This document shows positions 1-26,091 of a DNA stretch of 64,000 bases, piece by piece. Origin of the DNA: a virus; IMG/VR virus record IMGVR_UViG_3300033145_002663, positions 1 to 64,000 of that record. The stretch is one strand, 5' to 3'. Within the stretch, counting starts at the first letter, position 1, and every line of letters begins with the position of its first letter. The notes under the pieces were generated by a model. The model was not told where the DNA came from. It did no database searches and saw only the letters and a program-made list of their open reading frames with translations. Both the position numbers and the translations under genes were made by a program.

Positions 1-393
1 AGGGATAGATATGTAACTATACAGTTGGGAGGTGCTAATGATTTTCCAGCGTGGGCAAAAGTGGATCTTAGGGGCAAGCTCTCTTTTAGGGAAACTGCCT
101 GGGTTATGTCTAAAGCTTCTGTCGCTGTTACTGTTGATAGTTTTATTTCTCATCTTGCTGGTGCTCTGGGCGTTTCACAGGTGTGTTTGTTTGGCTCTGG
201 CAACAGCAATGTGGTTCGGCCAAATCAGGTCAAGGGAGAATTAGTCTGTATGATCCCGGATTATATTAGACATTGTAAAGGTTTGGGCCCGTGCTCTGCA
301 GCAGTCCGGGATTGCCCGGCAACGTGTACGGGCAGGCATGATCCAAAAGATATTTTAAAAGCAATCGAGAAAATCGAAAGGAGAGTTGAGTGA
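1..393 (+). CDS. Glycosyltransferase family 9 (heptosyltransferase-like), 5'-truncated by the window edge
   Basis: DLRGKLSFRETA...VTVDSFISHLAGALG...LFG matches the GT9 C-terminal motif (DSG..H.A.A.G..LFG). The frame is open from base 1. Confidence 0.8.
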   Translation, partial: RDRYVTIQLGGANDFPAWAKVDLRGKLSFRETAWVMSKASVAVTVDSFISHLAGALGVSQVCLFGSGNSNVVRPNQVKGELVCMIPDYIRHCKGLGPCSAAVRDCPATCTGRHDPKDILKAIEKIERRVE

Positions 394-1094
394 AGCCACT
401 GGTTATTGCAAGCAATATGTTTAACGAGATCGATCAGGTCGAGGATTGGTATGCCAATATGTGCCAAATTGCGGATGCGGGCATTCTGATTGTTGATACG
501 GGTTCGACGGATGGAACAAGGGAGTTCTTTGAATCCAAGGACAACGTAGTGTTTATCACGGACGATATCATCCTCCGTGAAGGCTACGGTCCTGCCAGGA
601 ATCATCTAAGGGAAATGTCAAGGAAGCACTTTCCGGAATCACATTGGATGATCTACCTGGATGCTGATGAGCGCATCATGCCCGAAGACTTCCACACCTT
701 GCGATTCTTAAAAGAGTATCTGGAAGACGAGTATGATGTGATTGCCCTGCCACGGTTGAACCGGTTGAATAAAGACACCCTGGACACCAAGGTTGATATT
801 CACATCCAAGCGGATTACCAGGCGCGAATGACCCGATTGTCTTCCGTGTTGCAATATGTTCGTAAATTGCACGAGCAGATCGTGGGGCAAAACAAAATAT
901 TTGCCGATCTGGAGAATCCTAAGATTCATCACTTTCATAGATCCACGGATCAGGGGAAGAGGGATTACATCGGGAAGGTGTGTGCAAAATTACACAGCGA
1001 AGATGCGGAGTGGGGCGAAACATATGGAAAGCATCATAAGGAAGATTTTTATTATAAACAGTATCTAGAGGTGGGGCTTCATGGAGAAAAATAA
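390..1094 (+). CDS. Glycosyltransferase family 2
   Basis: ILIVDTGSTDGT, GPARN and WMIYLDADE motifs. Confidence 0.85.
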   Translation: MKPLVIASNMFNEIDQVEDWYANMCQIADAGILIVDTGSTDGTREFFESKDNVVFITDDIILREGYGPARNHLREMSRKHFPESHWMIYLDADERIMPEDFHTLRFLKEYLEDEYDVIALPRLNRLNKDTLDTKVDIHIQADYQARMTRLSSVLQYVRKLHEQIVGQNKIFADLENPKIHHFHRSTDQGKRDYIGKVCAKLHSEDAEWGETYGKHHKEDFYYKQYLEVGLHGEK

Positions 1095-1989
1095 TTTTTA
1101 TGTTTATGCATGGCTTGATCCAAGAAAACCTGGGAAATATGTTTATGATAATTATTCTTTTAATTATGAGCCCTATTATATTGGAAAGGGTAAGAAATAT
1201 AGAAAGAGTACTTTGTGTAATAGAAATAATTTTACAATCAACAAGTTAAATAAAATAGAAAGAAATGGTTTTAAAAATAAAGTTTATATTGTTGAAAAAA
1301 AATTAATAGAGAAAAAGGCCTTTGATTTGGAATGCGAGTTGATTGCGCTTGTTGGAAGGTTTGATTTGGGGAACGGTCCATTAACAAATATGTCAGATGG
1401 AGGAGATGGGAATTCTGGTCATATACATACAGAAGAAACTTTAAATAAAATGAGGGGAAGACCGTCTTGGAATAAAGGCATTCCTTTGAGCGATGAATTA
1501 AAAAAACACTTATCTAAAATAAATACAGGGAAAACTCTTTCTGAGGAAACTAAAAAGAAAATACAAAAAGCTATGGAGGGGCGAATAGTTTCCGATGAGA
1601 CCCGTAAAAAGTTGAGGGTGGCAAGCACTGGCAGAAAACATTCTGAAGAAACAAAAAAGATGTATTCTAAAACAAGACGCGGAAAACCTAACGGAAGATT
1701 GGGGTGCAAACATACAGAAGCGACAAAGAAAAAAATGAGTGACGCTGTTAAAAATAGAGAAAAAAGAATTTATTCTGAAGAAGCAAAAAGGAATATGTCT
1801 CTTTCCAAAATGGGAAGCAAGAATCCTATGTATGGTAAACAAGTATCTGAAGAAACAAGACTAAAAACTTCTGAGTCTTTGAAGGGCAGAAGAAGGTCTC
1901 TTGAAACGAGAAGAAGAATGTCTGAAAGTAAAATGGGTGACAAAAATCCCATGTATAAAGGGGGCCGGTATGCTCAACATGCTCAATAA
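1081..1989 (+). CDS. Free-standing GIY-YIG-like homing endonuclease with multiple NUMOD3 repeats
   Basis: FYVYAWLDPR...YYIGKGK N-terminus, LTNMSDGGDG, repeated G(R/K)xH(S/T)EETKKK(M/I)S and KNPMYGK units. Visibly AT-richer than its neighbours. Confidence 0.85.
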   Translation: MEKNNFYVYAWLDPRKPGKYVYDNYSFNYEPYYIGKGKKYRKSTLCNRNNFTINKLNKIERNGFKNKVYIVEKKLIEKKAFDLECELIALVGRFDLGNGPLTNMSDGGDGNSGHIHTEETLNKMRGRPSWNKGIPLSDELKKHLSKINTGKTLSEETKKKIQKAMEGRIVSDETRKKLRVASTGRKHSEETKKMYSKTRRGKPNGRLGCKHTEATKKKMSDAVKNREKRIYSEEAKRNMSLSKMGSKNPMYGKQVSEETRLKTSESLKGRRRSLETRRRMSESKMGDKNPMYKGGRYAQHAQ

Positions 1990-2911
1990 GTTCACGTCAA
2001 CTGGTAAAAAAATCATCCACCATCCAGAAGTTATTAAGAGAATACAGCAGCATGGAATGGGCACACCAATCTCAGCTCAGATCGGAATAACGTCGCGTTG
2101 TAATTTAAAGTGCAGCTTCTGCTCAAACGCAAAAAGAAAAAAGCATGAAGACTTAGATCCCAAAGATATCATGGAGATTCTAAACGAGCTGAAGCATTTA
2201 GGATTAAAAACGGTAGAATGGAGCGGCGGCGGGGATCCGACCATGTATAAGGATATTAATTACGTCATGGAATCCGCTCATGCGATTGGCCTGCAGCAGG
2301 GTATGATTACTAACGGAGTATTTTTAAAGAAAAAAGTTGTCGCGAAGAATCTTAACCGGTTGGCATGGTTAAGGATATCTATGAACTGTCTTGATTACGT
2401 CTCCGATGTTGATGTTCCGGAAATTAAAGGTGTGCTCGGGTTTAGTTATGTCATGAATGAAAAGACCGATGTTCTTGTTCTTAGCAGGTTGCAGCACATG
2501 GTTGATAAATACAATCCGAAATATGTTCGGATAGTTCCCAACTGCCTTGCGACCAAAGAGCGACAGGAAATTAATAACAAAATATACGGTGATAAAATTG
2601 CAAAGTGGGGAGCGCCTTATTTTTATCAGGAAAAAATCTTTGACCGGCCCGATCATTGTTACTGGTGTTATTTCAAACCCTTTATACTGCACGACGGTTT
2701 TGTTTACCCGTGCAGCTCGGTTGTCTTGCATAGCGGAGCTGAGGGTAGATTCAATGATCAGTTTCGTTGGGTGAGGATGGAGGATCTTTGTGATGTTTAC
2801 GAGAAAGAAATGAGCCCGTTTCCGACCGACAATTGTGACCACTGCGTATTCAAAGATCAGAACGATTTAGTTGGGATGATTTTAAATCCTCAGATGGAGA
2901 ATTTTATATGA
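1970..2911 (+). CDS. Radical SAM protein with C-terminal SPASM/twitch-like Cys region
   Basis: CNLKCSFC, SGGGDPT, CYWC...DGFVYPC...CDHC. ATG 1970 is preferred over the ORF-track start at 1901. Confidence 0.9.
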   Translation: MLNMLNKFTSTGKKIIHHPEVIKRIQQHGMGTPISAQIGITSRCNLKCSFCSNAKRKKHEDLDPKDIMEILNELKHLGLKTVEWSGGGDPTMYKDINYVMESAHAIGLQQGMITNGVFLKKKVVAKNLNRLAWLRISMNCLDYVSDVDVPEIKGVLGFSYVMNEKTDVLVLSRLQHMVDKYNPKYVRIVPNCLATKERQEINNKIYGDKIAKWGAPYFYQEKIFDRPDHCYWCYFKPFILHDGFVYPCSSVVLHSGAEGRFNDQFRWVRMEDLCDVYEKEMSPFPTDNCDHCVFKDQNDLVGMILNPQMENFI

Positions 2912-3861
2912 AAAGACCATTTTCGCATACGTCAAACACTGTAAAGCTTTATAAGCACCTTGACCGTTTACAGAAATTACAGTCAGGTATTGTGTCTCCT
3001 ATTTTGATACACATGTCGCCAACCAACAAATGTCAAATGCATTGTTTTCATTGCTGCTTTAAAAATCGTAAAGACAAGACATTGGATATGCCTTTCGGAT
3101 CACTCAAAGAAGGTATGAGTCAATTTCACGAATTAGGCGCAAGGGCTGTCGAGCTGACCGGTGGTGGTGAACCGTCATTGTATTCTCATATAAACGAAAC
3201 AATCGAATTTTTAAAATTGGATTTAGGCATGCATATGGGGATAAACACCAATGCCCTGGAGTCGCAGCGCGTGAAGCATTGGGAGTACTTTGACTGGATC
3301 CGGGTTTCATTCAATACTTTGGATTTTTATGACACTATTAATATTGGGCCTATCCGTCAGTCAGGGGCGTATATTTCGGGTTGTTATATTTGGAATGATC
3401 TTACAACCATCGAAGTGTTTGAAAAGATTGTCAGGTTTGCAGACGAGCATAAGATTGTCTGTAGAATTGCTCCGGACTGTATCAGGCCATTGGAAGAAAT
3501 TGATGAACTGGTTGAAAAGGTCAGGGGTATTGTAGAGAGGTACGAGAGCGATTACATATTCCTTTCGGACTTTAATATTGACACCTATCGTCATAACACC
3601 AAGTGCTACCTGCACTTGATTAAGCCGTTTTTTTATACGGACGGGTACATTTATCCTTGCCCGAGCACGGAGTTGGTCCAGGAGCATAATTTTCAGGTAA
3701 ATCCGGATTATCGAGTATGTCGATATGATGAGGTTCTAAAATTTTACACAACGAACGCGTTGGATATACCGGAAAGAACCTGCTCATATTGCAAGTATGC
3801 CAAACAGCAAATTGTGCTTGAAGAAGTTTTAACCAAAACCACTTTTAATGAGTTTGCCTAA
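2908..3861 (+). CDS. Radical SAM protein, paralog of the upstream gene
   Basis: CQMHCFHC, TGGGEPS, KPFFYTDGYIYPC...CSYC. Confidence 0.9.
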   Translation: MKRPFSHTSNTVKLYKHLDRLQKLQSGIVSPILIHMSPTNKCQMHCFHCCFKNRKDKTLDMPFGSLKEGMSQFHELGARAVELTGGGEPSLYSHINETIEFLKLDLGMHMGINTNALESQRVKHWEYFDWIRVSFNTLDFYDTINIGPIRQSGAYISGCYIWNDLTTIEVFEKIVRFADEHKIVCRIAPDCIRPLEEIDELVEKVRGIVERYESDYIFLSDFNIDTYRHNTKCYLHLIKPFFYTDGYIYPCPSTELVQEHNFQVNPDYRVCRYDEVLKFYTTNALDIPERTCSYCKYAKQQIVLEEVLTKTTFNEFA

Positions 3862-5126
3862 TGAAAAAAATTGAAAAAATAGTTTTAATTATTCCTCCGA
3901 GTCCCTGGTTAATATCAGACCGGGACATCCCGATGCTTGGCATTTTGTACGTCGCGGCACATATCAAACGTATATGTGAAGTTACGGTGTGTGACTTGTC
4001 GAGCATTCCCGAAGATCAGTGGTTTATTCCGGTGGGAGACCTGTACGGCATTACCGGTGTTAGCCCGCAATTTATATACATGAAGAAAATTATCGAAATT
4101 TTAAAACAAAGAGAACCCCACAAGCCTGTCATTGTGGGGGGTGTGCATGCAACGGTGTTGCCGGGTCATGTTTTAGAGGACACACTGGCCGATGCCTGTG
4201 TTTTGGGTCAGGGTGAGGACGTGCTGGCAAATATCATATTGGGGAATAGTTTAGAAATTTCAGGAGTGCAAACCAGAAGCAAGGGCGGGCATATCCAGAG
4301 AAATGGCGTGCCGTTTGTTTTCCCGGACAGGAGCGCCATAGATTACTACAGCTATCTCGTCCCGAGGACTTTTGGATATATGGCCGATGTAAAAAGAGAG
4401 GCGTCTATTATTACCGGGAGAGGATGCCCTTACTCGTGCGCTTTTTGTGCCAGTAAAAAAATGCACGGAACCAAGGTTCGGTTTAATCCCGCGCAGGCGG
4501 TCGTGAGCGAGTTCTTGTACTTAAGAGATGAATTCGGCGTTGAGATGGTTAACGTGCTTGATGATACCTTCATCCTCAATAAGAAAAGAGTGTATGAGAT
4601 TTGCCAGGGGTTAAAAGATCAGGGGATTAAATGGTTTTGCCTAACCCGGGCGGATTGTGTTGATAAGGAACTTCTTGTTGAAATGAAAAAAGCCGGGTGC
4701 TTGTCACTGGCCATAGGATTTGAAACCGGGTCCGATCGCTTGCTTCAATTGTTGAACAAAAAGATCACCATTGCTCAATGTAGAGAATGCGTGAAGATGG
4801 TGAGCAAAATCGGTTTTATGATAAACGGTCAGCTAATGACCGGTCTGCCCACGGAAACCATGAAAGACGTGGAACTTACCAGAAAATTTATTGAAGATAA
4901 TCCGGAGGTGGACACTTTTGGTTTGCATATGTTTCAGCCTTACCCAGGGTCCGACATATGGGAACATCCTGAAAAATACGATATTAAAATTGATAAGACC
5001 ACTGATTTTAGTGATTATCATACCATTGGAAAGCATGATGGTAAGTACCATAAAGATCAATTGCTCGATGAGAGATATCGATATTTAAAGACCGTTATTG
5101 GCAACAGGAGCCGCGAGCTTAGATGA
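3861..5126 (+). CDS. Cobalamin (B12)-binding radical SAM protein (class B methyltransferase-like)
   Basis: N-terminal PMLGILYVAA and VIVGGVHAT B12-binding motifs; TGRGCPYSCAFC; IGFETGS; PYPGS. Confidence 0.9.
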   Translation: MKKIEKIVLIIPPSPWLISDRDIPMLGILYVAAHIKRICEVTVCDLSSIPEDQWFIPVGDLYGITGVSPQFIYMKKIIEILKQREPHKPVIVGGVHATVLPGHVLEDTLADACVLGQGEDVLANIILGNSLEISGVQTRSKGGHIQRNGVPFVFPDRSAIDYYSYLVPRTFGYMADVKREASIITGRGCPYSCAFCASKKMHGTKVRFNPAQAVVSEFLYLRDEFGVEMVNVLDDTFILNKKRVYEICQGLKDQGIKWFCLTRADCVDKELLVEMKKAGCLSLAIGFETGSDRLLQLLNKKITIAQCRECVKMVSKIGFMINGQLMTGLPTETMKDVELTRKFIEDNPEVDTFGLHMFQPYPGSDIWEHPEKYDIKIDKTTDFSDYHTIGKHDGKYHKDQLLDERYRYLKTVIGNRSRELR

Positions 5127-5857
5127 TAGATTATTGCACCATTCTTGTTCATGAAGGAGAGCGCGAGTTGCTGGCTATGCAGCTGCGGAGCCTGCGTCAT
5201 TATTCCGGTGACGAATTTAATTTTAAGGTCAGCGTGCGGCCGGAAGATACGGACTCGATAGAGTTTTGCAAACAGTTAGGCTTAGAGGTTTTATTGCACC
5301 CAACCTACACTCAAATGTTAGCACACCCCGGTTTGAGGCAGGCCGGGTTTGATTGCGCGAACCGTATGCATGAATTGATGAAATCCTGCACGTCGGACTG
5401 GGTTATTTTAACTCACTCCGACATTATATATACCGGAAAGATAGACATGGCTTTAATGACTGACGAATACGGCTTACTGGGGGTCTGGGCCCACGGATGT
5501 ACGGTTATAAACCGGAAAGTCTATAATGGTTGCCATTACCTCTTGTGGCCGATGGGGGGAATTCTTGCCAGACTGGTTTGCAGGCCATCAAAAGAATGGG
5601 ACGGTACGGTTAAACTTGTTGGCAACCATGAGCAGGAGGAAGAATTTTTAAGTGTTTCCGGGGTAGATGTTGGCGAGTTACTAAAGCTGGAAATGCAGGG
5701 CTATGGCTTCAAGTTTGATCCATCAGGGTTTTCAGGACGCTATCGTCACTTGGGAGGCGCATCTTTTCACGGCCTTACTCCTAAAGAAACAGACATTATA
5801 GAGGATATCATTGCCCGAAAAGCAGTTTTTATTGAAGAGTTCAAGGAGTTCAAATGA
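5123..5857 (+). CDS. Putative GT-A fold glycosyltransferase
   Basis: CTSDWVILTHSDIIY is a DxD-like strand motif; paralog of 6534..7394; cluster context. Confidence 0.55.
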   Translation: MIDYCTILVHEGERELLAMQLRSLRHYSGDEFNFKVSVRPEDTDSIEFCKQLGLEVLLHPTYTQMLAHPGLRQAGFDCANRMHELMKSCTSDWVILTHSDIIYTGKIDMALMTDEYGLLGVWAHGCTVINRKVYNGCHYLLWPMGGILARLVCRPSKEWDGTVKLVGNHEQEEEFLSVSGVDVGELLKLEMQGYGFKFDPSGFSGRYRHLGGASFHGLTPKETDIIEDIIARKAVFIEEFKEFK

Positions 5858-6522
5858 CCATTTATGTGTTTGGGGACAGCCATTCCAGTATGTTTAATGT
5901 AGATCACAGGCAACAAGAATCGAAGTTCAAAGTATCTCCGGAGGCCGTTGAGCATGAGGGTTTCGAAGGGTTTTTGGATGTTTCCTCCGGCGTCCCATTA
6001 GCTTATTCCCTTGCAAAGCATCATGAAGTTATCATGAAGGAATTGGAATCCATACCGTTTAAAGACGGCGATGAGATGTGGTTTATATTTGGCGAGATAG
6101 ATGTCAGGTTTCATATTTTTTACTGGCACCAGGAGCTGGAGATCTCGCTGGATGAATCCATCGATAATGTTGTTGTCAGGTATATTTCGTATGTAAAGAG
6201 ATTAAGAGAGATGGGGTATAATATCCACATCGTGAGCGTGGTTCCGCCACAACCGAATCCGTCTGCATTTCATAATGATCCGACCCTTGAGGTTCTCAAT
6301 CCGATTAGAGGTGATGGCATTACCGTTGCGGACAGAGTGTATATGACAGAGAGGTTAAACTCCGAACTCAGCAAGGCGTGCGCTGAAAATAACATACCGT
6401 TCAGGGATGTTCATCAATTTATAGTGGATCCGATTACCAGGTGCAACATTCCGGAAATGACCAGGGATAATATGCACTATTATTACATAGGTGATCTTAT
6501 TATTGAAAAATTCGGTTTATAG
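5854..6522 (+). CDS. SGNH/GDSL-family esterase or acyltransferase
   Basis: VFGDSHS (block I), FGEIDVR, DNMH (DxxH). Confidence 0.75.
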   Translation: MTIYVFGDSHSSMFNVDHRQQESKFKVSPEAVEHEGFEGFLDVSSGVPLAYSLAKHHEVIMKELESIPFKDGDEMWFIFGEIDVRFHIFYWHQELEISLDESIDNVVVRYISYVKRLREMGYNIHIVSVVPPQPNPSAFHNDPTLEVLNPIRGDGITVADRVYMTERLNSELSKACAENNIPFRDVHQFIVDPITRCNIPEMTRDNMHYYYIGDLIIEKFGL

Positions 6523-6533
6523 AGGAGACTTTT

Positions 6534-7394
6534 ATGATAGATCTTTGCGTTTTTTTTGCAGGCCAGAACCTCGATGCGTACGCGCCGTTGTTCCTGGAAA
6601 CATTGTATCAAAACTGCGACACGTCGAATCTCTGTGTTCATGTGGTGGAGAAGGGCGGCATCTATTATAACGGACCGGAGCGCGATCCGGGCGATCCGTG
6701 GTACACGTCGCTTCCGATTCAGTATTATGTTCCGGGTGTTGGCGATAATGTTCATGAGTATTTACTCCAAAAGCAAAATGAGGTGAATACACCGTTTACA
6801 ATTTACGAAAAGCACGACCCCAGCGAATTTTTTACAAAAACAAGACCGGGTGAACCGTTTTGGCATTTCGGGGATGATCATGGCAATACCTTAAACTGGG
6901 CAATCGAGAATTGCGGTACAAACAAGTGGATCATATTTTGTCACTCGGACATAATTTTTAGAAACGATGTGATCACCCGGTTCCAGGAGGAGATGTTTGA
7001 CTGGGTTGGTATGTTTGGCATTTACAATCATTGCTATGCTGTAAACCGGGAAGCATTTTCTAGAGTCGGCATAAAATTTAACTGTGTTACCAATTTCAGG
7101 GTGGTCCCGGTTAAGCACATCGGTTTTGATTATCAGTTAAAACACGCAGGTGATCCGAAATGCCCTGCGGATGCAAAGGTAGTTTACGGTTTTGATATTG
7201 GCGAATTGCTGGAAGTTATGATGATCGCTTATGGCTGGCATTGTGATGTATCAAACGTGCATCCTTTTTGTTCGAGCCTTGACCATATGGCGTCGGGTCA
7301 CGGGTATGTAAATGAAGTGACAAGAACACATCAGGAAAAACGGAGGCAGGCATGGATGAAGGAGTACGACATACAGAAAGTTACGATGAAATAA
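6534..7394 (+). CDS. Putative GT-A fold glycosyltransferase
   Basis: KWIIFCHSDIIF and GFDIGELL; paralog of 5123..5857. Confidence 0.55.
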   Translation: MIDLCVFFAGQNLDAYAPLFLETLYQNCDTSNLCVHVVEKGGIYYNGPERDPGDPWYTSLPIQYYVPGVGDNVHEYLLQKQNEVNTPFTIYEKHDPSEFFTKTRPGEPFWHFGDDHGNTLNWAIENCGTNKWIIFCHSDIIFRNDVITRFQEEMFDWVGMFGIYNHCYAVNREAFSRVGIKFNCVTNFRVVPVKHIGFDYQLKHAGDPKCPADAKVVYGFDIGELLEVMMIAYGWHCDVSNVHPFCSSLDHMASGHGYVNEVTRTHQEKRRQAWMKEYDIQKVTMK

Positions 7395-7410
7395 AGGGGT
7401 TTATTAAACT

Positions 7411-7938
7411 ATGAAACTTCATATCGGTACGGGTACCACATATTTACCGGGCTGGATCAATGTCGATGTTTTTTCTTTTGTAAACGCGGATGTTTATTCA
7501 AACGCGATGAACCTGCCATACGAGAGAGAATCGTTCGATTTGATTTATTCCAGCCATGTTCTTGAACATTTTAATCGGCATATGATCCTGGCAGTGCTTG
7601 GCCACTGGCGAAGCCTGTTAAGACCGGAAGGAATTTTAAGGTTGTCGGTCCCTGATTTTAAAGCGATCTGTGAATATTACAGTAAAACAAAATCTTTAAA
7701 GCCGGTGACAGGATTGCTTTATGGCGGCCAGAGGCATCTTTTAGATGTTCATCGCATTTGTTTTGACAAGGAAACTTTGCTTTCCTGTTTAAGTTCTGTT
7801 GGATTTCAAATCGTTAGGGAATGGGACTGGAGAGAAACGGAACATGCAAAATTTGATGATTACAGTCAGGCGTATCTTCCGCATCTTAAAAAAGACACGG
7901 GTCTTTTGATGTCTTTGAATTTGGAGGCTGTTAAATGA
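7411..7938 (+). CDS. SAM-dependent methyltransferase (type 11-like)
   Basis: KLHIGTG..YLPGWINVD, LPY...SFDLIYSSHVLEH, LRPEGILRLSVPD. Confidence 0.85.
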   Translation: MKLHIGTGTTYLPGWINVDVFSFVNADVYSNAMNLPYERESFDLIYSSHVLEHFNRHMILAVLGHWRSLLRPEGILRLSVPDFKAICEYYSKTKSLKPVTGLLYGGQRHLLDVHRICFDKETLLSCLSSVGFQIVREWDWRETEHAKFDDYSQAYLPHLKKDTGLLMSLNLEAVK

Positions 7939-9155
7939 TTTCTTTTTATCACGTAGCACCCGGGAACGAGTATTATACAATCATGTATCGAAAACCATTG
8001 TGCAAGTTTTGTCAAAAGAATGGAATTCCGTTCGAGGAGGTTAAAGATTTTTTAGCGGTAAAAAATTCTACGCTCGTAATACTGGGGGATCATTTAGCTC
8101 CCGAGATGATTACCAGGATTAAAAATAACGGCAATGTTCTGGTAGTGTTTGATATCAATGATAACTCGGTTCTCACCGGAACATACGGCGATTCTGATGA
8201 AGTGGCTTTGATAGATTTAATCTTTAAGATATCCGGTGTCCAGAAAACACAGGAGTCTTATGAAGTTTGCATTGATAATGATTTGAACTATACGCGCGAA
8301 AAGAAGAAGTTCCAGGGCGGTAACTGGGGAAAATATTTTGATATGGTTGCTGCGAATAAAATTAAAAGCCTGCCGTATCCGTCCTGGGATAAGAAAAACG
8401 CAGCGAATACTCCGTGGGCAGAGCGTCACAAATTAGTCCTGGTCCGTGGTGGGCATCATTATTGCCGGGTTCATTTGTTTTTGCATCTTCTGTCTTTAGG
8501 ATTGCTGGATGGAAATTCCATGTTTCCGGCGAGTGAGTATGCCTTTCAATTTTGCGAAGATTGCAGGAGACTTTTTGATCGTGACGGAAAGATCACGTTT
8601 GAGCACTTAAAGGATCATCCGGACATGCAGTGCCGTTTAAAGAACTGGCCGTACAATTTCAATGAAAATGGAGGTCTTTGGAATAACAGTTGTATTCCCA
8701 GGTATTTTGATTTGGCAGAATTGTTTCTTAAAAAGCATGGCGGTTTTGACCTGAGTGCCGTTGAAAGTGCGTTTCAGGGAAAATTTGCCGGTCCCGGATG
8801 GAAGAATGAAATTTTAAACAGGTATTTATTCTATGCGGATTTTAAATGGATCTTTTCGATATACGCGCCCCCAAGATTCTGGGAGGCGGCGGAAGCATGT
8901 ACGATCAGCCTGGTTCCGGAAAGAATGAACGACCAGGAGTTTTTTCCGCCGATGCGAGACGGAGATCATTATATTACGTATAAGGAAGATTTTTCTGACC
9001 TGAGAGAATCTTTCGAAATCGGCCAGGAACAGTTTGAGCATATCACTAATAACTGTTTGGAGTTGTATGATAAATGGATACTTGGAAATGATGATTATCG
9101 GGTGTCTCCAAATTTACTGTCATACATTATTCAAGAGATTAAGAGTGTCGAATGA
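7935..9155 (+). CDS. Putative GT-B glycosyltransferase (CgeB/GT1-like C-terminus)
   Basis: PPRFWEAAEAC...FFPPMRDGDHYITYKEDFSDL resembles the GT-B C-terminal motif. Confidence 0.55.
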   Translation: MISFYHVAPGNEYYTIMYRKPLCKFCQKNGIPFEEVKDFLAVKNSTLVILGDHLAPEMITRIKNNGNVLVVFDINDNSVLTGTYGDSDEVALIDLIFKISGVQKTQESYEVCIDNDLNYTREKKKFQGGNWGKYFDMVAANKIKSLPYPSWDKKNAANTPWAERHKLVLVRGGHHYCRVHLFLHLLSLGLLDGNSMFPASEYAFQFCEDCRRLFDRDGKITFEHLKDHPDMQCRLKNWPYNFNENGGLWNNSCIPRYFDLAELFLKKHGGFDLSAVESAFQGKFAGPGWKNEILNRYLFYADFKWIFSIYAPPRFWEAAEACTISLVPERMNDQEFFPPMRDGDHYITYKEDFSDLRESFEIGQEQFEHITNNCLELYDKWILGNDDYRVSPNLLSYIIQEIKSVE

Positions 9156-9931
9156 GAATTATTAATGTTTTTGATAAAGACGAACCTCGCGCGGGTGATA
9201 TTTACTCCGGACCCTATCAGTATTTCGACTGGCCCTTAGAGATTGAACCTATGACTTCGAGGGTTCTTGAAGATATACCGTTCGAGGATGAAAATGTCTT
9301 CTTTATTTTTGGCGGCGGCGGGATGCTGCATATTCCATTCCCAGAATATGATCAGGGTCGGTTCTTACTGCTTGAACGGTTTTGCGAGGTGGCGGATCGT
9401 ACGGCCTTATGGGGTATCGGTCATAATGTTCATGGTGCTGAAAAGATTGAATATCCGGAATACATAAAAAAATTTATTGCCGTAGGAGTAAGAGATTGGA
9501 ACCAGGGAATTAGATGGGTTCCATGCGCAAGTTGTATGCATGAGGTATTCCATAAGACTTATGAAGTTAAAGATGAGATCAGAGCTTACCGGAGAGAAGA
9601 TCCGTGGCCTTTCCCGTTTGATCATTACCCGATGCTTCAGGATGCTAACGGATATCCCCTGGAGAGTATCGTAGAATTTCTTGGCGGTGCCGAGACTGTC
9701 ATTACCAATTCATACCATGGAGCTTACTGGTCGATGCTGCTGGGCCGTAAAGTAACAATTCACAAACCTTTTGCTTCTAAATTTTTCGGGCTCACCGATC
9801 GCTATGAGTTTGATGGTGAGAACATTGTTATACCGGTACATGAGAATTTTTATGAGCAGTGCGTAACCGCGAACGAAGCGTTTCACTCTAACGTTGTGGA
9901 TCAATTGAGGATGCGTTTTGGACTTTTATGA
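9152..9931 (+). CDS. Polysaccharide pyruvyltransferase-like protein
   Basis: AGD, IFGGGG, WGIG, VGVRD and VITNSYHGAYWSMLLG motifs. Confidence 0.75.
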   Translation: MRIINVFDKDEPRAGDIYSGPYQYFDWPLEIEPMTSRVLEDIPFEDENVFFIFGGGGMLHIPFPEYDQGRFLLLERFCEVADRTALWGIGHNVHGAEKIEYPEYIKKFIAVGVRDWNQGIRWVPCASCMHEVFHKTYEVKDEIRAYRREDPWPFPFDHYPMLQDANGYPLESIVEFLGGAETVITNSYHGAYWSMLLGRKVTIHKPFASKFFGLTDRYEFDGENIVIPVHENFYEQCVTANEAFHSNVVDQLRMRFGLL

Positions 9932-10538
9932 TCAAGATTATTATGAGCGAGGTTTAGAAACCGGTAAGAGCTGCTATCAGAATTACCGTTGGATACCTGA
10001 GCTCACGATTCCTATGGCCATGGCCATAATCGACTATCTTGACATTAAGCCTAACCAAAAAATTTTGGATTACGGCTGCGCAAAGGGCTTTCTGGTAAAG
10101 GCGTTTCGTTGGCTGCGGCGTGAGGCCTGGGGCGTGGACGTTAGTGAATACGCATTGTCCAACTGTGATTCTGAAGTTCAAGAATATTGCCTGTCTCCAG
10201 TGGATTATGACTACTTCGGTCCTGACCCGGTAGACGTTGTGATTGCCAAGGATGTTTTTGAACATATCTCGTTGACGGTTTTGTCTGATATCGTCAGCGA
10301 GAGGGATTGTCTGATTTTTGCGGTAATTCCCCTGGGGGATAACGGAACATACAGGGCGCCGGCCAACAACATGGACCCGACGCATATTACCTGCATGGAC
10401 GAGGACGAGTGGAAAGCGTTTTTTAATCATCATAACCTGATCGTAGAACAATTCACATTTAAGGTGGATGGAATTAAAGATAGTTATTACGATCAATACC
10501 CAACCGCTCATGGTTTTTTTACTTTGAGGAGGAGATGA
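9918..10538 (+). CDS. Class I SAM-dependent methyltransferase
   Basis: ILDYGCAKGFLV, GVDVSEYA, KDVFEHI; TTG start. Confidence 0.85.
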   Translation: MDFYDQDYYERGLETGKSCYQNYRWIPELTIPMAMAIIDYLDIKPNQKILDYGCAKGFLVKAFRWLRREAWGVDVSEYALSNCDSEVQEYCLSPVDYDYFGPDPVDVVIAKDVFEHISLTVLSDIVSERDCLIFAVIPLGDNGTYRAPANNMDPTHITCMDEDEWKAFFNHHNLIVEQFTFKVDGIKDSYYDQYPTAHGFFTLRRR

Positions 10539-10539
10539 A

Positions 10540-10962
10540 ATGTTAACATTATTTATTTTGAAATCGGGCAGCCCGGATGCTGATCCGAAAAAGACTTTGG
10601 ATTCATTTAACGGTGTGAAGAATTTAGTGGGCCAGGCCACTCTTTTGAATTCATTATCAGAGATTAATGCTGCTGAGAAACCAAGAGACTGGTATTTCGT
10701 TATTTATGACGATGAAATCGTTGGGGACGGCTTGATGCGAGTCCCCTTGGAAAAGGATGGTCAGGTGAGGACATATTGCCCTCTTAAGGTCCACCTAAGA
10801 AATACACAGGCTGATGTGCTTATCTTGTTTAAGAAGAAGGACGGCGCTGTTAGCCAGTCTCCCAGGGTATTCAGGAAGCACGTGAAGCTGTCGGACACGC
10901 TGCTGCCTGCGGATAAAACGGTTAGGTTTGACAAGGTTCTGGATGGGTGGATTAAGGGATAA
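10540..10962 (+). CDS. Short, degenerate GT2-like protein
   Basis: DWYFVIYDDE and SPRVFRK resemble the GT2 DW..LDADE and R.F motifs, but the protein is only 140 aa. Confidence 0.4.
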   Translation: MLTLFILKSGSPDADPKKTLDSFNGVKNLVGQATLLNSLSEINAAEKPRDWYFVIYDDEIVGDGLMRVPLEKDGQVRTYCPLKVHLRNTQADVLILFKKKDGAVSQSPRVFRKHVKLSDTLLPADKTVRFDKVLDGWIKG

Positions 10963-11507
10963 TGATTCAACTCGAGTTCAACAAAACAGATTATCGGCGA
11001 TATATGGGGGCTTTGGATAGGATAGAGTTGTGGTATAAACGGAAGTCGAGGATACTGGATTTTCGAAATGCGGCGAGTTTTCATTGGTTACTGCTCGACA
11101 ATTTGTTTAAGTCAGGCTCGAAATATGGTTATGCCCCGTATCGTCATCGATATGCCGCGTGGAAGAAAACAGGTTTTATGGGCAACTTCTGGCGCTTAGA
11201 CGGAGATCTTGTAAAAAACATTGTTAAGCGTAGCGTAAAAGACGGATGGGTGGTCGGCATCAATGACGTGATGGATCAGGGCGGCAAGTCGTGGTTTGGC
11301 AGGACGGCTACTCATCCCGGACGATTAGGTAAGCCAAAAAGCATTGGGATGTACGCGACGGTCATGGAGTTTGGCGGTGATTTTGGACAGGGCGGAAAGC
11401 ATCCTCCCCGGCCACTGTTTAATCCGACTCGAGAGGAATATGCCAAAGGCGAATGGCCGAAAGAGGGTGCGAAAACATTACAGACTATTAAAGGGGCGTG
11501 GAGGTAA
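10962..11507 (+). CDS. Putative neck / tail-completion (virion morphogenesis) protein
   Basis: C-terminal YATVMEFG...HPPRPLF resembles the HK97 gp10 / morphogenesis family; position before tail genes. Confidence 0.6.
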   Translation: MIQLEFNKTDYRRYMGALDRIELWYKRKSRILDFRNAASFHWLLLDNLFKSGSKYGYAPYRHRYAAWKKTGFMGNFWRLDGDLVKNIVKRSVKDGWVVGINDVMDQGGKSWFGRTATHPGRLGKPKSIGMYATVMEFGGDFGQGGKHPPRPLFNPTREEYAKGEWPKEGAKTLQTIKGAWR

Positions 11508-12785: not shown

Positions 12786-13376
12786 ATGGCACGCAAGGGA
12801 CCTGTTTGTACAGATACTACCACCATAGCTTTGGGTTTGGCTCAACTTCGAGTGCTGAATTCAGCGGATAACATTGGAAAAATCAATGGTCAGGGTGCGT
12901 CAAGCGATTCTATCGGATCTTTGGCAAACACAAAGTTTATTGGTGGCGCGGATTATTTCGACCTTGAGGGAGGTTTTCCGTTAATCAAGGAGTTCACCAC
13001 TGCGATTCGTGAGTCAGCATCCATGGAGTGCGCTTGGAGAGAACTCACACCGTTTAACGTAGCAATGTCTTACGGCATTGATCCGACTTCCGGATATGCT
13101 GATGCTCATTCCGGAGAAGTCGCTCTGGGCGGAAGAACAGCCCCGGCATACGTTCGGATGGAAGCTTTGTATACCTACCCGGATGGTACCAATACGATGA
13201 ATATTATTTTCCCGCGAGCCCAGGTTAAATCTGCACTTGAGATTGATCTTCAAAGTGAGGATGCGGCTGCGGTTCCGGTTACGTTCGAGTCCATGAACGC
13301 ATCGTCCGATGTTAGCGGCGGTGACGCGGTTTGGGACGATATGCCGCTTGGGAGAATTTATTGGGAAGATGTTTAA
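12786..13376 (+). CDS. Major tail (tube) protein
   Basis: Strong SD AAGGAGGTGA; acidic, beta-rich 196 aa; precedes chaperone and tape measure. Confidence 0.75.
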   Translation: MARKGPVCTDTTTIALGLAQLRVLNSADNIGKINGQGASSDSIGSLANTKFIGGADYFDLEGGFPLIKEFTTAIRESASMECAWRELTPFNVAMSYGIDPTSGYADAHSGEVALGGRTAPAYVRMEALYTYPDGTNTMNIIFPRAQVKSALEIDLQSEDAAAVPVTFESMNASSDVSGGDAVWDDMPLGRIYWEDV

Positions 13377-17100: not shown

Positions 17101-18507
17101 AAACAATTGTTGGCGGATCAGAAATGGCTGGCCGCCCGGTTGAAAGATCGCACGAAGTTTAATGAATCCGTGGCTCAGGTGATGGAGAAATACGGCAATC
17201 TTCGAACCGCTCATGAGAATGAAGTGGCGGCTAAATCATTGAAGATTGTAAAGGATCAGGCGGATCAGGCGGCAAAGATTGAAGAGGATAAGGCCAAGAC
17301 TATCCTGGAGGCTAAAAAGAAGATCGCTGTTGGGGATAAGGACGAAACCGCCCGGCTTGCCCAGGAGGAGCGGGATCTTGAGTTAGGATTTATGGAGGAT
17401 CGTTTAAATCGGCACAGGACTCATTATGAGAATTTAAAGATACTTCACGGAGAATATCATTCGAAGGTTAAGGCGGTCTATCAAAAATTGATCGAGGAAG
17501 AAAATAAGGTTGAAGAAAAACGAACGTCCAACGCCGAGTCTAATCATCAGGATCGAATCAATGCGCTGAAACGATATTTCAATGAAGGATTATCCGCCAC
17601 ACAGCTGTACTCGGATAAGTGGCTTGCAATTATGAAGTTCATGCACGAAGAACATATGATCGAAACCCATGATTTTTTGAATCGTATGAAATCCTATTAT
17701 GTTTACTGGATGGACGAACATGAGAAACAGTGGAAGCGCGGAGAGGTTGCGGTTGAAGATTATGTTGCCAGTATTCAGGAGGCCTTTGATCATGCGGCGA
17801 TAACTCTGGAAGAATATAATGAGAGGATGGTTGCTTCAAACGGCACCATGATTGAAGCATTGATGTGGGGTCTCGATCGGGCAAAAGAAAAGATTCAGTC
17901 GTGGCAAGAATTATTCATGAATATTGGGGAAACGTTTGTCGATACGTTCAGCAGCGATGTGACGGGCGCTATATGGGATGTGATTGAGGGAACTAAATCC
18001 GCGGAGCAGGCGTTTCAGGACTGGGCTCGCAGTACTCTTCGCTGGATCGGTGAGATGATCACTAAGCTGTTGATTCAGAAAGCTATTATGATGGCGATGG
18101 GTATGGCCATGGGTGGTAGCTCCCCAACACCGGATACAGGAGGGATGGGGCCTGTAGATTATTCAATGCCTAGAGGTGTAGCTCATGAAGGTGGAATCGT
18201 CGGTGTTACCCCATTTCCCACCAGGATTGTTAATCCTAACATCTTCGCAAATGCCAAAAAAGCTCACGGAGGTCTTGCTCCTGACGAACGCCCTGTCATT
18301 ACAAAAAAGAATGAGGGAATTTTTACACCGGATCAAATGGCAGCATTGGGGCCGGGCGGTACCCGGGTGGAGCTGACCAATATCAATGTCGTGGATGAAC
18401 GGGTATTGCCCAGACTTCTTGCTTCTCCGATGGGGAAGAGCGCAATGTTTAATTTTATGGGTCAGAACGCACCCATGATTAAAAGAATTGTTGGGGGTGG
18501 CCGATAA
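14167..18507 (+). CDS. Tail tape measure protein (TP901 family)
   Basis: 1446 aa; TKFSTVEVAEGMVLLTQAGFS...LANSGLRASTIGTGLRQ core; helical and coiled-coil; C-terminal AHEGGIVG. Confidence 0.95.
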   Translation: MADKTLTLGTVFTSDISQVISAIKRLRTEMQGLNSRMQGLSSKATSASKATKSMSTSMTKATKDTKKLGETQQWTGKQIGKVSGAWERMKAAMKVTASYGLASKAIFGIYTALTAGTQEIINFDQALKNLQAISGATEAQVSVMGDTIKQVAKRTKFSTVEVAEGMVLLTQAGFSASESMAAIQAVANLATGTLTSLKVTSDLLTTTIRAFSLEATEASRVADVMANAINKSKLTIDKLRISFNFVGSVAAQTGLSLEQTAASMMVLANSGLRASTIGTGLRQVLARLMAPTGKLREAFESHNIELEKVNPRIVGFQTAINNLLPVMWDSKKGAVDMTKAFELFGLRGSQAAAILVKSFAGTEYANMLSKVYDVGAAEAMAGIQAEGLGVKLKNLADRFKLVAIAAGEAGVSSAIALLVDTLKGLSYVMEAVAKNVIGTTLIGWGAWSLVILGTAKALKVLYSLMKSMAVWTGLKAAISGLVFQFTTWNSVLLLSGASLTKLRAAGIALSSMFAALSPLTKFVLILGAMATAFGVVVNWSKKHREELEKTVEVHKAGIGSLQQHSKALEDLNEKLEDGEDVTEQYKATVKRLQKEHEDLARYVNFNTASHEELNRAIQKLSFDKFRNSLPDLISLIALQTKRVKELTAGFDALKVSTDAAADVWIDNEFAGKASVEQWKTGRIAINSLENANQDLTSQLVLFVKQEKITIDEAKELITKYFETEGATDKLADAIKRLEDAMAALNKETSMVSGGALRSITDEYEAYYKTLNDLEKARMVVATDTMLKTQKNRASTLKKRLRDEPDAERLIGVAKGDEAAKTLLKQIDNNKKEELSFQALINFKKNALREYAGDVDSRYSEDLKKIDEYYEEEIDKVKAKALTKVSVEKLSQIDRDNISKQAIAKETELRKKRDSKFQEMAMRHAGFMAAIEGSVSKVKEKKQKGKSAAELKLESDKQYYTAMERASGDAFEKLRMQQDKQLLADQKWLAARLKDRTKFNESVAQVMEKYGNLRTAHENEVAAKSLKIVKDQADQAAKIEEDKAKTILEAKKKIAVGDKDETARLAQEERDLELGFMEDRLNRHRTHYENLKILHGEYHSKVKAVYQKLIEEENKVEEKRTSNAESNHQDRINALKRYFNEGLSATQLYSDKWLAIMKFMHEEHMIETHDFLNRMKSYYVYWMDEHEKQWKRGEVAVEDYVASIQEAFDHAAITLEEYNERMVASNGTMIEALMWGLDRAKEKIQSWQELFMNIGETFVDTFSSDVTGAIWDVIEGTKSAEQAFQDWARSTLRWIGEMITKLLIQKAIMMAMGMAMGGSSPTPDTGGMGPVDYSMPRGVAHEGGIVGVTPFPTRIVNPNIFANAKKAHGGLAPDERPVITKKNEGIFTPDQMAALGPGGTRVELTNINVVDERVLPRLLASPMGKSAMFNFMGQNAPMIKRIVGGGR

Positions 18508-19109
18508 TGTATACCATTGCCCCGGCAGAAACGTTGTGCTCATTTGCTCCGCACTGGGCTGAAGACGTTAAGTTGCAGCGGCGATACATTACGACAATTA
18601 CAGAAACCGAAGAAGGGAATGAACAGCGAAGCGGTATTCGCCCAACGGTTGAACATGGACTATCTTTTACGGTTCAGACTAAGAACCAGGCCCAGACGAG
18701 TTATCTGAGAAGGCGTTTGAACAAATATGTAAATCAAGTATGGCATGTACCTATATGGCCATACGAAATGCAATTAACCAGCGAGGCTTCAGCAGGTTCC
18801 AGTGTTTTAAATGTAGACGAAGCAACCTACCGGGAATTGGATCAAATCGGGCCGAGCGGTGAGGTTGTTGAGGTTGTTTTGCATAAAGATTATAACACTT
18901 TCGAGTCCGGGGAAATATTAAGCTTTGATTCGACAACCATTACATTGGATAAGAATTTAGACTCGACATGGGCTCAGGGATCAAAGGTGTATCCATTGTT
19001 TAAAGCAACGTTGGGTATGGCGGTTGACCTGGAAGCGCCGACACAGGAGCATTCGGTAGTGGGGTTGAGTTTTAACGAATCTTTCAGATCAATATCCGGT
19101 GAGGCATGA
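18507..19109 (+). CDS. Distal tail-like protein
   Basis: Follows tape measure; ETEEGNEQRSGIR...WHVPIW. Confidence 0.6.
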   Translation: MYTIAPAETLCSFAPHWAEDVKLQRRYITTITETEEGNEQRSGIRPTVEHGLSFTVQTKNQAQTSYLRRRLNKYVNQVWHVPIWPYEMQLTSEASAGSSVLNVDEATYRELDQIGPSGEVVEVVLHKDYNTFESGEILSFDSTTITLDKNLDSTWAQGSKVYPLFKATLGMAVDLEAPTQEHSVVGLSFNESFRSISGEA

Positions 19110-20556: not shown

Positions 20557-21026
20557 TGGAATGGTATTTTACAGAAACAGAACGGCAGTTACAATTGAAA
20601 GCAATTATTGATTCATGGATTAACACCCCGTTCCGGCATCGATGTGCTGTAAAGGGTAAGCAGGGCGGTGTGGATTGCATCCATTTTTGTGCGGAAGTGT
20701 ATAAGGAATTAGGGGTGATAGATAGTTATAATATTCCTGAGTACGCTCCGGATTGGCATCTTCATCGTACAGGCGAAAAATTATTGCTTGGCATTTTTAA
20801 TTTTGCAGACTCACATCCAACGGGCACTTTAAAAAGTGTTGGGTACGCAAATCCAAAAAATGGGGATGTAATTATGTTTCAGTATGGCAGGGCTTCAGCT
20901 CATACGGCCATATATTATGAGAATCGAGTGTATCAGGTATTGACCGGTATGCGAGTAGAACCCCGACCATGGAATGATGCAACCACTAACTTTAGAAAAC
21001 AATATGGATTGAGGGTATATGAGTAG
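20556..21026 (+). CDS. NlpC/P60 tail-associated peptidase
   Basis: SWINTPFRH...GVDCIHF...HTAIY. Confidence 0.85.
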   Translation: MEWYFTETERQLQLKAIIDSWINTPFRHRCAVKGKQGGVDCIHFCAEVYKELGVIDSYNIPEYAPDWHLHRTGEKLLLGIFNFADSHPTGTLKSVGYANPKNGDVIMFQYGRASAHTAIYYENRVYQVLTGMRVEPRPWNDATTNFRKQYGLRVYE

Positions 21027-25465: not shown

Positions 25466-25657
25466 ATGAAACGACAATTACCGGATAAAATATATTTAAT
25501 CCTGGAAGAAACTTTTGACAAAATTATTGAGGAATTAGGTGAGAATGAAATTCATGGTCATAAATTTCATATGGTCGAGAGAGAATTCAGGTTTATGATA
25601 CGGAATAAACGGCATGAAGCGAGGAAATCATGGCAACAACAACTAAATATGGTTTAG
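25466..25657 (+). CDS. Hypothetical protein
   Basis: 63-aa ORF filling the operon. Confidence 0.45.
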   Translation: MKRQLPDKIYLILEETFDKIIEELGENEIHGHKFHMVEREFRFMIRNKRHEARKSWQQQLNMV

Positions 25658-26091
25658 TTACAGTCGAGTATGGTGTTACCGGGTGGAACGGAATTTTAAA
25701 AACTTCCACTCAACAGATAGATTATTTTCTCCATACATACGCACGATTTCGGGTAGCCTCTGGGGAATCCATTGCTCCATACAGACCCGTATGCCTGCAG
25801 AACGGACAGTGGAAGTTGGCCATGGATGACGGTTCCGGGCGTCTCCCGAATGTTGGTCTCTCCATTGAATCCACCACAAAGGGGAGCGGGGAGTACCTGC
25901 GGGCTCAGCGCTGCGGGCCGGTAACGAACAACTCCGGGGAAGCGGCCTGGTCCTGGGACCCGGTAAGCGGGGAAGTCTGGACGAATGAATCGGGAGAATT
26001 GGTTCAGGGTGTGTCCGGTGAGAGCTGGCGGAACCGCCAGGCACGTGTAGGGTGCGTATCTGATGAAACAACTATTTTTATTCAATTATAA
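25630..26091 (+). CDS. Putative virion structural / tail-associated protein
   Basis: MATTTKYGL...GWN N-terminus and GESIAPYRPV...WKLA pattern seen in small virion proteins. Confidence 0.5.
   Translation: MATTTKYGLVTVEYGVTGWNGILKTSTQQIDYFLHTYARFRVASGESIAPYRPVCLQNGQWKLAMDDGSGRLPNVGLSIESTTKGSGEYLRAQRCGPVTNNSGEAAWSWDPVSGEVWTNESGELVQGVSGESWRNRQARVGCVSDETTIFIQL

Follow-up and report, generated by a model that had tools for sequence, protein, structure and literature searches.

A phage gene island of glycosyltransferases and radical SAM enzymes, with Ser-Gly-Glu as a candidate glycosylation site in virion proteins

The IMG/VR virus record IMGVR_UViG_3300033145_002663 is a single virus genome of 92,469 bp (CheckV completeness 100%), of which the first 64 kb (positions 1 to 64,000) form the window analyzed here, and between its head and tail genes lies an island of 15 genes, about 12.7 kb in length and running from genome position 90758 to window position 10962, that encodes glycosyltransferases (GTs), radical S-adenosylmethionine (SAM) enzymes and methyltransferases. 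Positions are those of the window unless marked as genome, and L numbers denote viral loci used in the comparisons. The tripeptide Ser-Gly-Glu is strongly enriched, about ten-fold, in the virion proteins of this phage and follows the island across its relatives, and from these sequence comparisons we consider it rather likely that the island acts in the cytoplasm to O-glycosylate virion proteins of the phage itself on the Ser residue of this tripeptide. A more detailed version, to which we give somewhat less than an even chance, is that of a sequon-directed system in which a phage-only GT4–GT9 fusion (a protein heptosyltransferase) and a GT2 would read Ser-Gly-Glu, radical SAM cassettes would be swappable, and the glycan would be replaced by an inserted domain in relatives without the island. 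The original prediction, made from the letters of the window alone, had proposed a glycan-building and glycan-tailoring pathway acting on the virion, and this central idea finds computational support in the position of the island, its sugar enzymes, the solubility of its proteins and the way in which Ser-Gly-Glu tracks it.

Ser-Gly-Glu in virion proteins with and without the island

Over the whole proteome Ser-Gly-Glu occurs 26 times against 7.7 expected. The virion proteins (7,213 residues) account for 19 of these copies, where 1.89 would be expected (P 2.4e-13); the island enzymes lack the tripeptide, and the remaining 7 copies fall in 18,078 further residues, with 4.7 expected. Ten control tripeptides showed no virion bias. 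A looser motif was rejected, as TGE, SGD, SAE, AGE, SGQ, SGK, SGS, SGT and the reversed forms are without enrichment, and a DNA motif as the cause was likewise rejected, with 13 different 9-mers coding for the tripeptide in this phage and all 48 possible ones found in its relatives. Since all synonymous codings are used, selection acts on the protein. The copies outside h186, a gene 3′ of the capsid gene, are distributed as follows.

12786–13376, + strand: tail tube protein (Pfam Phage_TTP_17, PHROG 117), one Ser-Gly-Glu at residue 109 in the context H-S-G-E-V
18507–19109, + strand: minor tail protein (PHROG 1082), three Ser-Gly-Glu
21019–22368, + strand: tail tip protein (PHROG 1101), two Ser-Gly-Glu
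25630–26091, + strand: 153-residue protein closing the run of tail-tip genes, without a PHROG, six Ser-Gly-Glu (P 1.8e-9 against its own composition), the strongest per-protein tripeptide excess in the proteome
genome 84749–85078 (L001:12280–12609): 109-residue protein just 5′ of the head protease, two Ser-Gly-Glu-Ile-Arg repeats, no family match

The product of h186 carries 5 copies (P 4.5e-8), and the 109-residue protein may, from its repeats, be a further glycosylated head-associated protein. The sites are conserved in position, in 16 of 16 cases for the accessory protein c10, 19 of 23 for h201 (3–6 sites each) and 10 of 10 for the tail tube, and their flanks vary. In the clade made up of this phage, L004 and L066–L069, the genes h186 and h136 (genome 88668–90697, L001:16199–18228) replace the accessory gene c10. 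Within this clade, which branches beside phages without the island, h186 carries four or five sites.

Nine relatives lack the island, and with 7 Ser-Gly-Glu in 39,183 residues (0.18 per 1000) they are at background. Every aligned site in their h201 and tail tube proteins is changed (for the tail tube, 3 island-less homologs were set against 10 island-bearing ones). A homologous inserted domain of 90–115 residues (blastp E 7e-11 to 2e-9) is present in the tail tube of L070, L088 and L135, just before the former Ser-Gly-Glu, and in h201 of L134, L135 and L143, at the third aligned site. Because a domain has been inserted at former sites, these positions are insertion-tolerant loops; the Ser-Gly-Glu sites are, as far as such alignments indicate, probably surface-exposed, and the inserted domain may be a protein substitute for the glycan in the island-less phages.

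These observations bear on the reading that the sugars are placed on phage DNA bases or on a diffusible glycoconjugate and that the Ser-Gly-Glu excess is a structural quirk. It is general knowledge that phages glycosylate hydroxymethyl-pyrimidines and that radical SAM enzymes take part in thymidine hypermodification, and several island proteins are without an assigned function, all of which would suit such a role. However, at least seven unrelated virion proteins contain the motif, its codings include all the synonymous ones, and where the island is missing the sites have been lost one by one; the island itself lies in the structural and not in the replication module. No thymidylate-synthase-family hydroxymethylase was found in the complete genome, an absence that speaks against sugar modification of the DNA, and we regard this reading as very improbable.

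Position, borders and modules of the island

The island straddles the ends of the contig. Window positions 1–8 are identical to genome positions 92462–92469, an 8-bp repeat at the contig ends (AGGGATAG), and removal of one copy fuses the open reading frames (ORFs) at genome 90758–92469 and window 1–393 into one frame of 698 residues, the product of which aligns over its full length with a 688-residue protein of relative L004. From the overlapping ends and the restored gene it follows that the genome is circular or circularly permuted; IMG/VR classes the record as linear, yet its ends join into a complete genome of either kind. As the first gene wraps across the contig ends, the cluster starts upstream of window base 1. 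The genes of the island and the gene at its right border are listed below.

genome 90758 to window 393, + strand: GT4–GT9 fusion, first island gene, 698 residues (GT4, PF00534/PF13692; GT9, PF01075); the part in the window is the C-terminal 130 residues, the end of the GT9 domain
390–1094, + strand: GT2 glycosyltransferase (Pfam PF00535, 34.2 bits; PHROG 13126)
1081–1989, + strand: free-standing NUMOD3 homing endonuclease with a GIY-YIG-like N-terminal motif (Pfam NUMOD3, 2e-29; PHROG 314, 1.9e-26)
1970–2911, + strand: rSAM1, a twitch/SPASM-like radical SAM enzyme (Pfam PF04055, conserved Cys, AlphaFold 2 (AF2) model)
2908–3861, + strand: rSAM2, paralog of rSAM1 (Pfam PF04055, same Cys set)
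3861–5126, + strand: radical SAM enzyme of class B type with an N-terminal B12-binding domain (PF04055, 82 bits; PF02310, 45 bits)
5123–5857, + strand: u244, paralog of u286 (invariant D3, D77, H98-x-D100 and H209)
5854–6522, + strand: SGNH/GDSL-type hydrolase or acyltransferase (Ser9-Asp205-His208 triad)
6534–7394, + strand: u286, so placed by its paralogy to u244
7411–7938, + strand: MT175, class I SAM methyltransferase (Pfam PF13489/PF08241)
7935–9155, + strand: u406, conserved protein with four invariant Cys, no family match
9152–9931, + strand: 259-residue protein with a sub-threshold polysaccharide pyruvyl transferase match
9918–10538, + strand: MT206, class I methyltransferase (PHROG 27380)
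10540–10962, + strand: u140, last island gene by position, found at the 3′ end of most islands
10962–11507, + strand: 181-residue neck-region gene, called neck from its position only, right island border, no family match

Fourteen ORFs of the + strand thus lie within window 1–10962, and 11 of the 14 junctions in the island overlap by 1–20 nucleotides (nt), the remaining gaps being 1, 11 and 16 nt, in agreement with the at least 13 tightly packed, overlapping genes that had been predicted; the predicted overlap of the final stop with the start of the neck gene is that of the u140 stop with the start at 10962. The start of rSAM1 is at 1970, not 1901. Promoter or terminator signals above those of shuffled controls were not found in the island, no island protein has a membrane segment, and no flippase, polymerase or priming transferase is encoded there. 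Its inferred placement in the late structural operon also stands. The head genes at the contig end are an S49 protease, a gene in the scaffold position and a Phage_cap_E major capsid protein, followed by four small genes of the head, h186, h136, h144 and h201, and 3′ of the island come the conserved 181-residue gene, the tail tube, a 1446-residue tape measure and the tail-tip proteins.

Relatives were collected with a profile of the rSAM1 family, which gave 55 IMG/VR loci, and with a capsid profile, which gave 80 of 378 capsid relatives; the h201 alignment varied too much to serve for scanning the collection, and the capsid alignment took its place. The common gene order, seen in some 25 of the loci found through the radical SAM enzyme and in 58 of those found through the capsid, is protease, scaffold, capsid, accessory, h144, h201, then the island (GT4–GT9, GT2, cassette, u140), then neck, tail tube and tape measure, with the head-completion gene h201 as the left island border. 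In the nine relatives without the island h201 and the neck gene are direct neighbors, and both u140 and the accessory protein are absent, from which it follows that the island is a discrete insert of about 12.7 kb. A second lineage (L023, L026–L031, L045) carries rSAM1 and MT206, a B12-domain radical SAM enzyme and other transferases between portal and protease; the GT4–GT9 fusion is missing from it, and in the parts seen Ser-Gly-Glu is not in excess. In L039 the island genes are split over the two head sites. Because island or cassette is found at both sites, the link to head genes holds across several arrangements; the synteny survey that the original prediction had called for finds the island between h201 and the neck gene in dozens of diverged relatives and, in other lineages, between portal and protease, still within the head module.

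The genes 3′ of GT4–GT9 and GT2 vary between phages and recur as modules: rSAM1 with MT206 (together in 42 of 55 loci), rSAM2 with the B12-domain enzyme, the SGNH protein and a u244-type protein, and MT175 with u406. Orthologs of rSAM2 are always followed by the B12-domain radical SAM enzyme (L008, L009, L035, L057), MT175 stands directly 5′ of u406 in every u406 locus except L057, where one gene intervenes, and L003 has only the B12-domain enzyme in common with the island. The islands of relatives further encode a GDP-mannose 4,6-dehydratase (2e-125), a PfkB kinase with a cytidylyltransferase-like protein, a cupin and DegT aminotransferases, as well as a hexapeptide acyltransferase, CmcI-like methyltransferases, a SPASM radical SAM enzyme and GDSL-like genes. 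The enzymes of nucleoside diphosphate (NDP)-sugar metabolism among these indicate that the chemistry of the island is sugar chemistry.

As to the phage itself, no tRNA genes were found in the 64-kb window, megablast of the region against the INPHARED phages gave no match, and the capsid protein gave only a 26% match, to Rhodococcus phage Mbo2. A capsid protein 100% identical to that of this phage is encoded in L065 and L066, contigs of two other IMG samples, so that the same phage recurs. Beyond the window, a 60-residue ORF at genome 69370–69552 with five CSA and a bias to Cys-Ser-Ala/Leu repeats was an outlier of the tripeptide scan and is probably low-complexity or non-coding sequence.

Core transferases, radical SAM enzymes and other cassette genes

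The GT4–GT9 fusion and the GT2 are the universal core of the island, the GT2 gene following the fusion in all distinct island layouts seen. Of the two families named originally, GT2 is above the Pfam cut-off, and GT9 is borne out as a family (PF01075, 38.8 bits for the 130-residue window fragment, with the cut-off at 22) but not as a separate whole gene, being the tail of the fusion. A profile of 20 GT9 domains finds the lipopolysaccharide (LPS) heptosyltransferases WaaC, WaaF and 3tov at E 1.5e-9 to 7e-6. The AF2 model of the GT9 domain, computed for the L004 ortholog domain (predicted local distance difference test, pLDDT, 83), matches 3tov with a Z score of 22.9, WaaF with 20.8, TibC with 18.6 (265 residues aligned) and WaaC with 17.7, the next GT-B fold following at 11.7. 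The C-terminal end of the fusion has four invariant Cys spaced CX5CX6CX3C, compared with Cys339, 342, 358 and 370 in TibC, in a region where model confidence is low (pLDDT 59). A GT4 domain, not a β-barrel, precedes the GT9 domain; its nearest solved relative is chlorovirus B736L (PDB 3oy2, E 8.9e-11), and a single-sequence PDB search of the whole fusion gave a GT4 match only. Homologs of the fusion form 307 clusters, of which the best 120 are nearly all 666–726 residues long (three are truncated), mostly carry a precomputed PF01075 match and all stem from contigs of metagenomes or viruses, none longer than 92.6 kb. In L012 and L035 a PfkB kinase gene and a cytidylyltransferase-like (HldE-like) gene lie directly upstream of the fusion; the GT9 domain probably adds heptose from ADP-heptose.

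An enzyme of this kind could also remodel the host envelope, with the GT9, GT4 and GT2 activities directed at nascent LPS or a lipid-linked glycan at the inner face of the membrane, where the outcome would be a block to superinfection or to the sticking of progeny to debris and the operon site would be a permissive insertion point. The best sequence and structure matches of the GT9 domain, WaaF, WaaC and 3tov, are as this reading would have them, the source annotations name the fusion ADP-heptose:LPS heptosyltransferase, and it is general knowledge that GT9, GT4 and GT2 families build the LPS core. Yet membrane segments, flippase, polymerase, ligase and priming transferase are all absent, translation of the island is coupled to that of late virion genes and no separate promoter was found for it, it moves within the head module only, and the gain and loss of Ser-Gly-Glu with the island would be left unexplained. 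The families are, moreover, essentially missing from cellular genomes: rSAM1 and the fusion occur almost exclusively on contigs of phage size, and a search across 185,579 cellular species genomes (one each) returned one true rSAM1-family homolog, in an archaeal bin on an 80-kb contig. The outcome that the original prediction had named as contrary to it, homologs mainly in host O-antigen loci, was accordingly not seen, and host-envelope remodeling appears unlikely to us. The rSAM1 family is virus-specific in the profile search, and its members are 50–85% identical among phages with capsid proteins that are 35–55% identical.

All three radical SAM enzymes of the island carry CX3CX2C and score above the PF04055 cut-off of 29.5 bits (rSAM1, rSAM2 and the B12-domain enzyme at 54.4, 39.5 and 82.3 bits, respectively). 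rSAM1 and rSAM2 are 24% identical with 8 common Cys, so that their description as paralogs was sound, and the B12-radical SAM enzyme was rightly named, its PF02310 domain (45 bits, cut-off 32.1) as well as its PF04055 domain being above the Pfam cut-off. Next to CX3CX2C, rSAM1 has conserved C193, C231, C249, C290 and C293, and the patterns CX9GX4C (rSAM1) and CX12GX4C (rSAM2) plus CX2C are conserved in 31 sequences, the Pfam SPASM model missing both proteins. The rSAM1 AF2 model (pLDDT 92) has VIA Z scores of 19.1 to DesII, 18.4 to SkfB, 17.3 to SuiB, 17.2 to BlsE, 16 to viperin, 15.9 to PqqE and 14.7 to BtrN; DesII is the top full-length fold match (301 of 314 residues), and the twitch dehydrogenase SpeY is within the top ten of Foldseek. 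The nearest solved relative of the B12-domain enzyme is AprD4 (PDB 6fd2, E 1.4e-26), which NCBIfam lists as a radical SAM diol dehydratase and not as a methylase. None of the three enzymes reaches an NCBIfam equivalog cut-off.

Such folds allow for peptide chemistry, in which Ser-Gly-Glu would be the recognition or cross-link site of twitch radical SAM enzymes in the manner of SkfB, SuiB and PqqE, with the transferases serving another purpose. The similar Z scores of these maturases and DesII, the auxiliary Cys set of rSAM1, which is typical of peptide maturases, and the Glu of the motif, Glu being the target of PqqE, would fit. Set against this, many islands with Ser-Gly-Glu-rich h201 and c10 have GT4–GT9 and GT2 without rSAM1 (for example L079, L082, L092 and L099), lineages with rSAM1 and MT206 and without GT4–GT9 are at background motif density, and the radical SAM enzyme travels with NDP-sugar enzymes. 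We judge peptide chemistry at the motif to be decidedly improbable.

The remaining cassette genes were in part named too boldly. The original gene inventory is largely right, with the homing endonuclease and the fusion missed and three or four proteins over-named. Its two methyltransferases are both class I and above the Pfam cut-off, and its SGNH protein has the catalytic residues of blocks I (Gly-Asp-Ser) and V (Asp-x-x-His), Ser9, Asp205 and His208, invariant in an alignment with GDSL-like relatives, one of which matches Pfam Lipase_GDSL_2 below the cut-off (21.9 against 32.9 bits); the window protein itself has no Pfam match. The two GT-A-like proteins, the paralogs u244 and u286, and the GT-B-like protein, u406, are language-model leads without a match among Pfam, NCBIfam and PDB profiles; on that lead u244 may be a glycosyltransferase and u406 may be a GT-B-like transferase. 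The pyruvyltransferase-like 259-residue protein matches PF04230 with 20.2 bits over 50 residues only, below the cut-off of 25.3, has no relative in the PDB search and has an ortholog in L035 only, so that this name was not upheld. The degenerate GT2, probably u140 (10540–10962), fell away as well, with a profile–profile (hhalign) probability of 0.9% against the island GT2. PDB profile searches gave nothing significant for u244/u286, u406, MT206 or h201.

The NUMOD3 endonuclease gene is wedged between GT2 (14-nt overlap) and rSAM1 (20-nt overlap), is missing from the GT2/rSAM1 junction in L004 and most relatives and is not part of the glycan pathway. Further stand-alone endonucleases, of HNH_3 and a related homing-endonuclease family, occupy differing island positions in L008, L011, L013, L014 and L079.

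Proposed mechanism and known systems

In the glycosylation scheme that we favor, the island would work in the cytoplasm during late gene expression. Its core transferases would recognize the tripeptide where it lies on exposed loops, in capsid-accessory, connector-region, tail tube and tail-tip proteins, and GT4–GT9 and GT2 would start an O-linked glycan on the motif Ser, with heptose as the likeliest first sugar. The swappable cassette would then extend or tailor the glycan or its NDP-sugar donors, each module adding or tailoring one residue or donor. rSAM1, rSAM2 and the B12-domain enzyme would make radical-modified sugars, rSAM1 most likely by radical oxidation, epimerization or deoxygenation, after which MT206 would methylate the product. 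Three Fe-S enzymes would imply a reducing, probably anoxic, host cytoplasm, and the resulting sugar coat would shield or alter the particle surface.

Several points weigh against this scheme. The evidence is comparative and genomic, the phage being known as a sequence only, and the association of island and motif amounts to only two or three independent evolutionary contrasts: on the capsid tree the island label needs 3 changes, of which well-supported branches force at least 2. The phage's own clade keeps the island, yet all four h201 sites are lost there (TGE, VAT, TET and DSE), and the target set thus varies; it is insertion tolerance, not structural models, that points to exposed sites. 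The GT9 profile finds LPS heptosyltransferases only, with no TibC match at E up to 10, and the fold is slightly nearer to WaaF than to TibC. rSAM1 matches the peptide maturases SkfB and SuiB about as well as it matches sugar enzymes, and several island proteins lack an assigned fold.

If the scheme is true, Ser-Gly-Glu and its transferase would provide a testable O-glycosylation sequon of bacterial type and a potential glycoengineering tool, the radical SAM enzymes would hold new sugar chemistry, and sugar-coated virion surfaces could be read from sequence alone, which would bear on phage–host recognition, the immune recognition of therapeutic phages and particle stability. The lineage concerned, uncultured and large (IMG/VR has 378 relatives by capsid), appears to glycosylate its virions with a different, phage-specific core enzyme.

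Phage virion glycosylation is, to our knowledge, documented only for a few actinobacteriophages, which use a few transferases, and in the open-access literature we found neither the island nor a phage Ser-Gly-Glu sequon described, nor any account of radical SAM enzymes in glycan clusters of phage structural modules. The closest counterpart is that of the mycobacteriophages of clusters F and O (Freeman et al. 2023, Cell Host Microbe 31:1216, as cited in PMC11600133), which likewise have transferases and a methyltransferase among their structural genes and for which, as summarized there, transferases of cluster O encoded beside an O-methyltransferase modify capsid and tail tube. The island differs in its core of GT4–GT9 and GT2, in its up to three radical SAM enzymes, SGNH protein and further proteins, in its far larger size (15 genes), in its swappable cassettes and in the sharp candidate sequon Ser-Gly-Glu, and it is known from genes alone; evidence for an actinobacterial host of the island phage was not found.

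TibC, of the GT9 fold, O-heptosylates Ser in N-S-G-G (PMC4358343), and TibC and AAH have the GT9-type GT-B fold in common with the phage domain; both are soluble, work in the cytoplasm and O-heptosylate Ser, including Ser before Gly. In TibC four Cys form a metal knuckle towards the C-terminal end of the C-lobe, to which the invariant CX5CX6CX3C of the phage domain may correspond. In contrast to TibC, the phage GT9 stands behind a GT4 domain and not a β-barrel, has another Cys spacing and has a profile that does not reach TibC; its targets would be virion proteins, those of TibC and AAH being β-helical adhesins. WaaC, WaaF and 3tov, the best sequence and structure matches of the phage GT9 domain, differ from it in that the phage domain occurs, among the best 120 homologs, only as a fusion of about 700 residues with an extra, putative Cys knuckle, and in that the lipid A/3-deoxy-D-manno-octulosonic acid (Kdo) context and a membrane partner are absent from the island.

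DesII, BlsE, BtrN, SpeY and AprD4, the fold or sequence matches of the island radical SAM enzymes, act on sugars or nucleotide sugars; identities are 12–18%, peptide maturases score equally, and DesII is without the auxiliary Cys set of the island enzymes. Chloroviruses glycosylate their own capsid protein with virus-encoded enzymes, and the chlorovirus GT4 protein B736L is the nearest solved relative of the phage GT4 domain, but these are eukaryotic giant viruses with atypical N-linked glycans, what B736L does is itself unproven, and the two gene contexts have nothing in common. Taken by its gene content, the island would be a variant of actinophage-type virion glycosylation, new in its core enzyme, its candidate sequon and its putative radical SAM tailoring.

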